Below, piece by piece: positions 20,298 to 21,490 of a stretch of DNA of 64,000 bases. The stretch comes from Escherichia phage WPEC1. Where the stretch lies: sequence record PV659873.1; one strand, given 5' to 3'. Both the position numbers and the translations under genes were made by a program. Within the stretch, counting starts at the first letter, position 1; each line of letters opens with the position of its first letter. The notes below the pieces were generated by a model. That model was not told the DNA's origin. It did not search any database and saw only the letters and a program-made list of their open reading frames with translations.

Positions 20298-20798
20298 ATG
20301 GGTGTAGCAACAATAGCTATCGGAAGAAGCGGTATAGATGAGTGCTATCAAACGGGACTCGTAAAACCTAACGAATTTCGTCAAATTTGTGTAAACCATA
20401 TTGAAAAAGAGATTGCTCTTACTTTAGAGAATATGACCCTCCGAGATAAACTGGAAATGTTTAAATGTTGGTGTCTAGGAGAAGATTGGCTTTTAAACCA
20501 TTTTCAAGAACTTTCTGATAGTAAAGAAAGCTTGTTTGATTGTATAATAGGAATAGCTGGCTCCGATCCTAGCCTTCTGCACATAACAGAAGAAGAGGCG
20601 AAGTTACTGTTCTTAAGTAATTTGTTTAATAAGAAAGCACTGCTTGTTCGTGATTGCAGTGATCTTCTTAATAACCCGCTCGCAACGTCTGATCAAATTT
20701 TTGTTGACAAAGAGACACTACGTGCGATAGAATACATCTGCAAATATGTGAATGGCGGGAAAGCGGTTCTTAAAACATTAACAGAGGAGGAAGAATAG
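20298..20798 (+). CDS. hypothetical protein (166 aa)
   Basis: ORF track; RBS AAGGAGG. Confidence 0.55.
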   Translation: MGVATIAIGRSGIDECYQTGLVKPNEFRQICVNHIEKEIALTLENMTLRDKLEMFKCWCLGEDWLLNHFQELSDSKESLFDCIIGIAGSDPSLLHITEEEAKLLFLSNLFNKKALLVRDCSDLLNNPLATSDQIFVDKETLRAIEYICKYVNGGKAVLKTLTEEEE

Positions 20799-21490
20799 TG
20801 ACGACAATTATTGCGACCAAAAATAAGATTTTGAGTGACGGTAAGGTAACTTTTGGTGGACGTGTAGATTCTATTAATTTCAAAAAGGTCCGAAAAATTG
20901 GAGATTACCTTGTAGGTGGTGCTGGTCGTCTGACCTCCGTGCTTTCTTTCTTTCAATGGTTTGAACAAAATCTACAGTGCGAAGCAGCACGTGATGCTGT
21001 CCCTGGTTTGATGATTCACTCTGATCCAGATAAAGAAGATGAAGAGTTTATTGCACTTGTTGTTCATCCAGATGGACGTATTTTCCTGCACGAAGGTAAC
21101 AACCCAACACGTGCATATCCGATTGATGAAGAATATTATGCGGTAGGAAGCGGGTCAGACTTTGCTTTAGCTGCTCTTGATGCAGGAGCAACACCAGAAC
21201 AGGCTATGGAAGTAGCTAAAAAGCGAGATGCTTTTTCTGGTGGTGAAACATTTATTGAAGAACAAGATGAGATTATTGAATTAACAGATGATGATTTAGA
21301 AAACTTCTCCAAAGAAGAATTAATCAATCTTTTGAAATTCGGTAATCCCTACGGTGAAGAAGAACCTCGTAACGTGGCAGGTAACGAGGCGGATACTGAA
21401 GAAAAATCTGTTGCAGAAAACAACTTGACTTCTAAATCTGAAAATATTAATCTCGTAAATGTGGCGGATTTCGAAGAAACCGCTATTTAA
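20798..21490 (+). CDS. HslV-like (ClpQ) Ntn-hydrolase peptidase with acidic C-terminal extension
   Basis: GTG start then TTIIA (Thr nucleophile), KKVRK, GGAGR and YAVGSGSDFALAA line up with HslV motifs. Confidence 0.65.
   Translation: MTTIIATKNKILSDGKVTFGGRVDSINFKKVRKIGDYLVGGAGRLTSVLSFFQWFEQNLQCEAARDAVPGLMIHSDPDKEDEEFIALVVHPDGRIFLHEGNNPTRAYPIDEEYYAVGSGSDFALAALDAGATPEQAMEVAKKRDAFSGGETFIEEQDEIIELTDDDLENFSKEELINLLKFGNPYGEEEPRNVAGNEADTEEKSVAENNLTSKSENINLVNVADFEETAI

Follow-up and report, generated by a model that had tools for sequence, protein, structure and literature searches.

Proteasome homologs were surveyed in 2021 by Fuchs, Alva and Lupas, who gave the name PPH to a clade of homologs found in phages (PMC8665760). 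The PPH proteins are about 140 residues long, belong to group I with the HslV/BPH-like proteins, occur in Caudovirales and are confined to proteobacteria. Both PPH and another group, RPC, are defined by the absence of helix H2, and the reference sequences of the two are WP_042125023.1 and WP_140207863, respectively (PMC8665760). The gene considered here lies at positions 20798..21490 on the + strand of a 64,000-nucleotide stretch of DNA from Escherichia phage WPEC1 (PV659873.1), which is referred to as the window. Judged by its sequence and by a structure model, its product of 230 amino acids (plus stop) is a proteasome-type N-terminal nucleophile (Ntn) threonine peptidase with an intact set of catalytic residues and a C-terminal extension, and its activity is predicted. 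On the same kinds of evidence it is not an orthologue of HslV, and it probably represents a long-tailed subfamily of the PPH clade.

The profile searches and the structure model agree on the family to which the protein belongs. The Pfam model PF00227 (Proteasome) matches with 25.6 bits and an E value of 1.1e-5, above its gathering cut-off of 22.4, and residues 1-229 match positions 14-247 of the 277 in PHROG 1040, 'peptidase HslV family', with 214 bits and an E value of 4.5e-63. When compared by phmmer with all chains of the PDB, the protein had significant matches to HslV only (E 4.9e-9 to 1e-4), the best being the T. maritima HslV, 1m4y, at 4.9e-9. The 20S beta5 subunit and BPH came next with E>0.1 (about 1 for BPH). 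An AlphaFold2 model of the monomer, for which 64 homologs were used, reaches a mean predicted local distance difference test (pLDDT) score of 82.6, with most of the core at 87-98. It adopts the Ntn alpha-beta-beta-alpha sandwich, the proteasome-beta/HslV fold, and a Foldseek search of the PDB with this model returned HslV and BPH at E ~1e-10. Because an Ntn fold is predicted and profile matches were found, the core claim of an earlier note on this DNA, that the phage encodes a proteasome/HslV-type peptidase, stands. The catalytic residues and near-identical genes in other phage genomes point the same way.

The predicted catalytic core comprises residues 1-158 (20798..21271, + strand). Within it, M1, T2, T3, I4, D14, K30, G117, S118 and G119 are invariant in the alignment of the 64 homologs, and G40, G41, A42 and G43 are at least 90% conserved. 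For comparison, the E. coli HslV sequence was translated from the K-12 genome. Its residues T1, T2, D17, K33 and S124 align with T2, T3, D14, K30 and S118 of the phage protein, the glycine-rich stretch aligns with HslV G45 and A47, and the phage GSG element aligns with HslV G-S124-G. The KKVRK motif to which the earlier note drew attention is found at residues 29-33, aligned with KKVRR at residues 32-36 of the E. coli protein. The GxGSG motif also named there is not literally present, the sequence being Y-A-V-G-S-G-S, although the conserved G117-S118-G119 element that it was meant to describe is. In E. coli, methionine aminopeptidase removes a Met that precedes Thr, as in HslV, and in the phage protein the host enzyme would likewise remove Met1 and expose Thr2 as the nucleophile.

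The earlier note had placed the start of the gene at a GTG giving a Met-Thr-Thr product. The open reading frame (ORF) beginning at this GTG has the N-terminus MTTIIATK, and a Shine-Dalgarno sequence, GAGGAGG (20784..20790, + strand), is seen 7 nt 5' of the start codon. Among 233 collected relatives the N-terminus is MTTI in 186 and MTTV in 24, and this conservation confirms the assignment. The hslV gene of E. coli K-12 (locus L002, 2758-3288, - strand) likewise has a GTG start, its product beginning (f)Met-Thr-Thr-Ile, so that the start of the phage gene mirrors that of the host gene despite an identity of only 27% between the proteins. A different start has been annotated in GenBank for Escherichia phage vB_EcoM-Ro121c4YLVW, whose protein (P0025) is given as 159 residues from the internal Met72 (MIHSDPD...), without the catalytic N-terminus. 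The DNA of that phage codes for the full 230 residues at 99% identity, which makes this an annotation error and not a truncation.

Despite the shared fold, several lines of evidence separate the phage peptidase from HslV itself. The two NCBIfam models of HslV equivalogs give it 32.2 bits (NF003964, cut-off 137) and 31.4 bits (TIGR03692, cut-off 157.75). The structure model contains one long helix H1 (residues 45-67), followed by coil at residues 68-84 where HslV has H2. HslV is a dodecamer built from two hexameric rings and is activated by HslU, whose C-terminal tail fits into a pocket between subunits made by the apical helices H1 and H2. In HslV the C-terminus of HslU is accommodated by F54, F57 and Q114, together with A79 and K80 on H2 (PMC6429459). 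In the phage peptidase F57 is kept as F52, while F54 is replaced by L49 and Q114 by R105, and the positions of A79 and K80 map to the absent H2. In addition, HslV L88/R89 correspond to D81/E82, and among 29 aligned relatives the Asp is found in 26 and the Glu in 25, while HslV K28 corresponds to Ser. The HslV residues K28, L88 and R89 have roles in HslUV.

The same conclusion is reached from the side of the ATPase. By sequence, the window belongs to a phapecoctavirus (phAPEC8-like, Stephanstirmvirinae). No AAA+ gene was found in the peptidase locus, which therefore lacks a cognate adjacent HslU. When 50,697 phage records were searched by tblastn with E. coli HslU, 164 records matched and 4 of these were named Escherichia, versus at least 60 Escherichia phapecoctavirus records that carry the peptidase gene. 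An HslU encoded elsewhere in the phapecoctavirus group was considered and rejected, since none was detectable in this search. The host (E. coli K-12) does possess hslU. HslV orthology is thus excluded, as far as sequence and model can tell, because the scores lie far below the equivalog cut-offs, H2 is absent, the pocket residues are changed and no phage HslU was found. In contrast to HslV (ClpQ), the phage peptidase also carries 72 extra residues where the E. coli protein stops at the core, and its isoelectric point is 4.3 rather than 6.0. The label 'HslV-like' in the earlier note is accordingly apt for an HslV/proteasome-type Ntn peptidase and inapt for HslV proper (31-32 bits against cut-offs of 137-158), and its suggestion of pairing with the host HslU is weakened by the absence of H2 and the changed pocket residues.

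The PPH clade provides a better fit. A profile search of a library of 1.84 billion protein cluster representatives yielded 5,202 proteins with E<1e-10. Of these, about 60, with E<=1e-30, are long-tailed forms of 165-331 residues, and just below them come proteins of PPH size, with 137-160 residues. A profile made from 63 short relatives (130-160 residues) gave 140 bits for the phage peptidase and 52 bits for E. coli HslV, a comparison that is partly circular, as the short relatives had been recruited by the peptidase family's own profile. Like PPH, the protein belongs to group I, has a compact core (residues 1-158) without H2 and without a propeptide, starting at Met-Thr, and possesses the Thr1/Asp17/Lys33 set of HslV numbering. 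It is also phage-borne: homologs are present in 235 phage records, and members of the clusters lie on phage contigs of 130-155 kb. Unlike PPH, with its length of about 140 residues, it has 230 residues, which include the 72-residue C-terminal extension, as well as a longer H1 with a loop after it. Based on the published description of PPH and on the proxy profile, it is probably a long-tailed subfamily of this clade.

Other homologs resemble the phage peptidase in part. RPC, compared here by description, shares the PPH-like core without H2 and a C-terminal extension, but it is reported only from proteobacterial genomes and described as more divergent, with an added domain, whereas the phage peptidase ends in a short motif and a disordered tail. 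BPH and Anbu are bacterial chromosomal genes whose products keep H2, in contrast to the phage peptidase. BPH assembles as a double ring of heptamers and Anbu as a lock-washer, and the sequence similarity of both to the phage protein is marginal. Among viruses, 47 structure models match the peptidase, and the homolog-carrying phages infect Escherichia, Vibrio, Aeromonas, Caulobacter, Rhizobium and Shewanella. Jumbo phages of Erwinia and Salmonella also possess proteasome-like subunits, as seen from a BFVD match in Erwinia phage Special G. These phages encode an HslU-like ATPase, while none was detected in the phapecoctaviruses.

The C-terminal extension (residues 159-230) contains 19 Asp and Glu versus 5 Lys and Arg, for a net charge of -14. 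The earlier note had described an acidic tail of about 60 residues that is absent from bacterial HslV; the acidity and the absence hold, and the length is about 72 residues. Two parts can be distinguished. The first, residues 159-190 (21272..21367, + strand; EQDEIIELTDDDLENFSKEELINLLKFGNPYG), is a conserved module in which an acidic linker is combined with short helices at residues 164-169 and 172-181, modelled as a two-helix motif with pLDDT 84-89. After the acidic linker the motif reads T-x-E-x-L-x-x-[FML]-[ST]-K-E-[EQ]-[LI]-[LI]-x-x-[LIM]-[FLY]-[GP]. A looser consensus is T-x-(E/D)-(D/E)-L-x-x-(F/M/L)-(S/T)-K-E-E-L-(I/L)-x-x-L-(F/L), for which the WPEC1 version is DDDLENFSKEELINLL. Of 219 full-length relatives, 103 carry the motif, and many of these represent separate clusters at 50% identity. 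The second part, residues 191-230 (21368..21487, + strand), is a variable acidic tail that is predicted to be disordered, with pLDDT 39-49. Among close relatives the mean identity is 77% in the core, 47% in the motif of residues 159-190 and 15% in residues 191-230, and yet all homologous tails are net negative, with charges of -1 to -27. A known Pfam domain in the tail was rejected because the best match, DUF7167, is below threshold (E 0.063).

In some relatives further domains take the place of the distal tail or are added to it. Four metagenomic proteins of 274-379 residues (P0061, P0062, P0063 and P0071; locus L011, 5001-6140) carry extra modules after the tail motif, consisting of a Cys segment (C-x-H...C-x-x-C) and a Trp-rich end (...KWRLHNA or WKLADE), for which there is no Pfam match. 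The variable distal tails and modules fit the suggestion that the C-termini of these proteins point away from the ring and function as interaction sites (PMC8665760). In a comparison bearing on the docking of the tail, the residues of H1 were found to differ between tail-bearing and tail-less relatives, and these differences track the split between the clades.

A natural deletion provides evidence on the importance of the peptidase to the phage. Escherichia phage VEcB (Justusliebigvirus, MT932211.1) has lost 1,132 bp, which correspond to 19851-20982 of the window, and the junction shows microhomology over about 9 bp. The deletion joins residues 18-133 of PhoH in frame to the peptidase from residue 63 onward, and it removes Thr2, Asp14 and Lys30 of the peptidase as well as the intervening ORF of 167 codons (ORF167). 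The resulting fusion (locus L010, 2165-2968) is annotated as a single 'hypothetical protein' of 267 residues (P0066, Pfam PhoH). Judging from the residues removed, the VEcB allele is a loss of function for PhoH, ORF167 and the peptidase alike. The possibility that P0066 is a true 'PhoH-HslV' domain fusion, in which PhoH substitutes for the ATPase, was considered and rejected, since the protein is the product of the deletion. The VEcB record was deposited as the complete genome of an isolated phage, and the peptidase is therefore probably accessory rather than essential, because this phage has lost its catalytic N-terminus.

It seems fairly likely that the gene encodes a stand-alone Ntn peptidase of the PPH type, which matures by Met removal, forms rings and acts in the infected cell without canonical docking of HslU, with a tail for recruitment or regulation and an accessory role for the phage. 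The subunits would assemble into rings like those of HslV and BPH and, during the non-structural phase of infection, would hydrolyze peptides, or else unfolded or specific proteins. The C-terminal extension may point off the ring, where it would recruit partners or substrates or regulate the enzyme. A number of observations speak against this reading. The proteobacterial hosts of the homolog-carrying phages possess HslU, and the HslU-facing residues Arg32 (=R35), Phe52 (=F57) and Glu56 (=E61) are retained. The profile of short relatives is partly circular, as noted above, and the VEcB deletion is known from one deposited assembly. In the full-text literature the family appears in annotation mentions and in the 2021 survey, and no enzymatic, structural or functional work on it was found. 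Moreover, stand-alone relatives are poor enzymes, in that HslV alone is weakly active and Anbu is without activity (PMC6429459, PMC6376114), and an activator may therefore be required. An alternative, which is considered unlikely, is that the peptidase docks onto the host HslU and replaces or supplements the host HslV, giving rise to an ATP-dependent hybrid enzyme by which host proteolysis would be redirected. The closest solved relative is indeed HslV, the three retained residues would face HslU, the hosts are proteobacteria and the phage itself does not encode an ATPase. However, H2 supplies part of the pocket for HslU (Ala79/Lys80; PMC6429459) and is absent, F54 has become Leu, Q114 Arg, L88/R89 a near-invariant Asp-Glu and K28 Ser, and the scores against the curated HslV models are about 100 bits under the cut-offs.

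A narrower role, as a specific processing enzyme, would make the protein an amidase or a connectase-like transpeptidase that acts on one or a few phage or host proteins, such as a host defence or stress factor picked out by the C-terminal module. The C-terminal modules of relatives differ strongly, comprising acidic tails, Cys-rich plus Trp-rich domains and others without a Pfam match, as is typical of arms-race or targeting modules, and the gene is located among early or accessory genes of the host-takeover type; but there is no known target and no conserved neighbor that hints at a substrate, and the proteins closest in structure are bulk peptidases, so this proposal appears quite unlikely. 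The C-terminal region bears on another possibility as well, since the acidic disordered tail and the amphipathic motif resemble an interaction module, and Anbu and BPH are without demonstrable activity (PMC6376114). Under this proposal the protein would serve as a decoy or a scaffold, without catalysis, and tie up a host factor, either HslU or some other binder of this tail. The invariance of Thr2, Asp14, Lys30 and the GSG loop in the 64 homologs, along with Met-Thr-Thr in about 210 of 233 relatives, argues for selection on catalysis and makes a decoy very improbable. Large myoviruses do require a protease for head maturation, but a role in the prohead is hardly conceivable for this protein: its gene lies in a block of nucleotide-metabolism and accessory genes away from the structural genes, the fold is proteasome-like and not of the HK97 or herpesvirus type, and VEcB, deposited as the complete genome of an isolated phage, lacks the catalytic N-terminus.

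A further and distinctly improbable proposal is that the enzyme provides its own activator. The tail motif (DDDLENF...) is loosely similar to EDLSRFIL at the C-terminus of HslU, and synthetic HslU C-terminal peptides activate HslV (PMC6429459). With H2 lost, the tethered amphipathic segment might occupy the activation groove between subunits, in cis or in trans, and mimic the HslU peptide, and the choice of substrates would fall to the distal modules, namely the acidic tail or, in relatives, the Cys/Trp-rich domains. The result would be a self-activated, ATPase-independent mini-proteasome. A similar segment is found in the downstream ORF (21536-21970), whose C-terminus, at about 21935-21967, ends in ...ELDNITKEEILDGIRL; here ITKEEIL resembles FSKEELINLL in the peptidase tail. 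This end is kept in the VEcB orthologue (...ENPEITKEEILSSGK), though the two proteins have diverged over most of their length. In the six-frame translation of the window, this ORF contains the sole other match to the pattern, for which about 0.3 matches are expected by chance as an estimate. The ITKEEIL end could compete for the same activation site.

The signals around the gene suggest how it is expressed. The stop codon of the upstream ORF, TAG (20796-20798), overlaps the GTG of the peptidase by one base to give TAGTG, which suggests an arrangement typical of translational coupling with ORF167. A match to a sigma-70-like promoter, TTGACA-18-TAGAAT (11/12; 20704..20733, + strand), lies within the upstream ORF, some 65 nt 5' of the GTG. 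It is a pattern match from a consensus scan that gave 31 such matches in the scanned region versus 22 expected by chance. On the other side, 6 nt 3' of the stop codon, a terminator-like hairpin begins (TGCCCC-TTCG-GGGGCA, then TTTCTT; 21496..21519, + strand). Also a pattern match from a consensus scan, it probably ends the transcription unit of lysozyme, PhoH, ORF167 and peptidase.

The peptidase gene is part of a same-strand block of non-structural genes, comprising rmlC/rfbD, glutaredoxin, lysozyme, PhoH, ORF167, the peptidase, the downstream ORF of 144 codons (ORF144) and a methyltransferase. In a relative of 59% identity the module of NrdAB, glutaredoxin, lysozyme, PhoH, an additional gene, peptidase and methyltransferase is retained. 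Gene neighborhoods were compared in Aeromonas phiA047, Shewanella 1/4, Caulobacter CcrSwift, Rhizobium Y65, a Vibrio N4-like phage, Vibrio F88 and a metagenomic contig. PhoH adjoins the peptidase in Shewanella phage 1/4 and is nearby in Aeromonas phiA047, and its adjacency was not seen in the Caulobacter, Rhizobium and Vibrio phages with short homologs. No conserved partner gene was found outside the rV5-like supergroup, and a functional partner was therefore rejected: because the adjacency of PhoH and lysozyme is limited to this supergroup, it represents inherited synteny rather than functional pairing. The two flanking ORFs are lineage-restricted. ORF167 (20295-20798, + strand) has no Pfam match and belongs to PHROG 14834, of unknown function, and comparison of the more distant phage loci showed no homologue of it next to the peptidase. 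ORF144 (21536-21970, + strand) likewise has no Pfam match and belongs to PHROG 15078, also of unknown function. The GC content of the peptidase gene, 0.37-0.41, is the same as that of the flanking genes and the phage background, so recent acquisition from a host was rejected and the gene is regarded as native to the phage.

Over 3.6 kb around the gene, the sequence is shared in full (100% identity) with Escherichia phages WPEC2, WPEC4 and WPEC6, and the identity to Schickermooser, ESCO13, phAPEC8_ev052 and others is 99.4%. For the block around the gene, a value of 98.8% was obtained against the reference phapecoctavirus Schickermooser. Identical copies have already been annotated in dozens of phage genomes, and the GenBank and RefSeq labels of identical or near-identical genes are 'HslV family peptidase', 'peptidase HslV family' and 'ATP-dependent protease subunit'. 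The host labels of four records among the matches (OP562383.1, MG065650.1, MG065639.1 and MH252123.1; hits H4, H22, H41 and H31) look doubtful. 'Acinetobacter phage vB_AbaM_ABPW7', 'Campylobacter phage B15' and 'Klebsiella phage ZCKP1' show at least 99% identity, in DNA or protein, to E. coli phapecoctaviruses across this region. 'Campylobacter phage A150' matches the Escherichia Justusliebigvirus group, with 68% protein identity to the peptidase, like outra and alia.

The window as a whole is not collinear with the reference phapecoctaviruses. The block at 16908-23753, which contains the peptidase gene, is collinear, while positions 1-16907 and 23754-64000 are not. Compared with WPEC6 and Schickermooser, large blocks stand in a different order or orientation, with short pieces in both orientations arrayed between them. 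The non-collinear parts contain many exact tandem duplications with a period of 77 (or about 152-160) bp, for example at 29094-29247, 41952-42106, 55379-55532, 56533-56687, 57600-57753 and 58216-58369. This looks like an assembly artefact, in which contigs or graph edges were joined without trimming of the k=77 overlaps. Two neighboring tRNA-Gln(ttg) genes are called, at 56544-56616 and 56621-56696, where the exact 77-bp tandem duplication at 56533-56687 is located, and the duplicate probably stems from this junction artefact as well. The finding on the peptidase is unaffected, because its block is collinear with independent genomes.

Both the gene and its annotation were in public records already, and a bioinformatic description of the family dates from 2021 (PMC8665760). 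To this are added the exclusion of HslV orthology, the delimitation of the tail motif of a probable long-tailed PPH subfamily, the absence of a conserved partner among the loci compared and a natural knockout. Proteasome homologs are widespread in phages, as indicated by about 5,200 cluster representatives, 235 deposited phage genomes and 47 viral models. The WPEC1 peptidase offers a convenient entry to their study, with a culturable E. coli phage, a relative with a natural loss-of-function deletion and a clearly bounded tail module. Determination of its substrates, or of self-activation, would show how phages handle host proteostasis and how a minimal proteasome-like particle is regulated. 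If self-activation were true, phages would carry a portable, ATPase-independent mini-proteasome.

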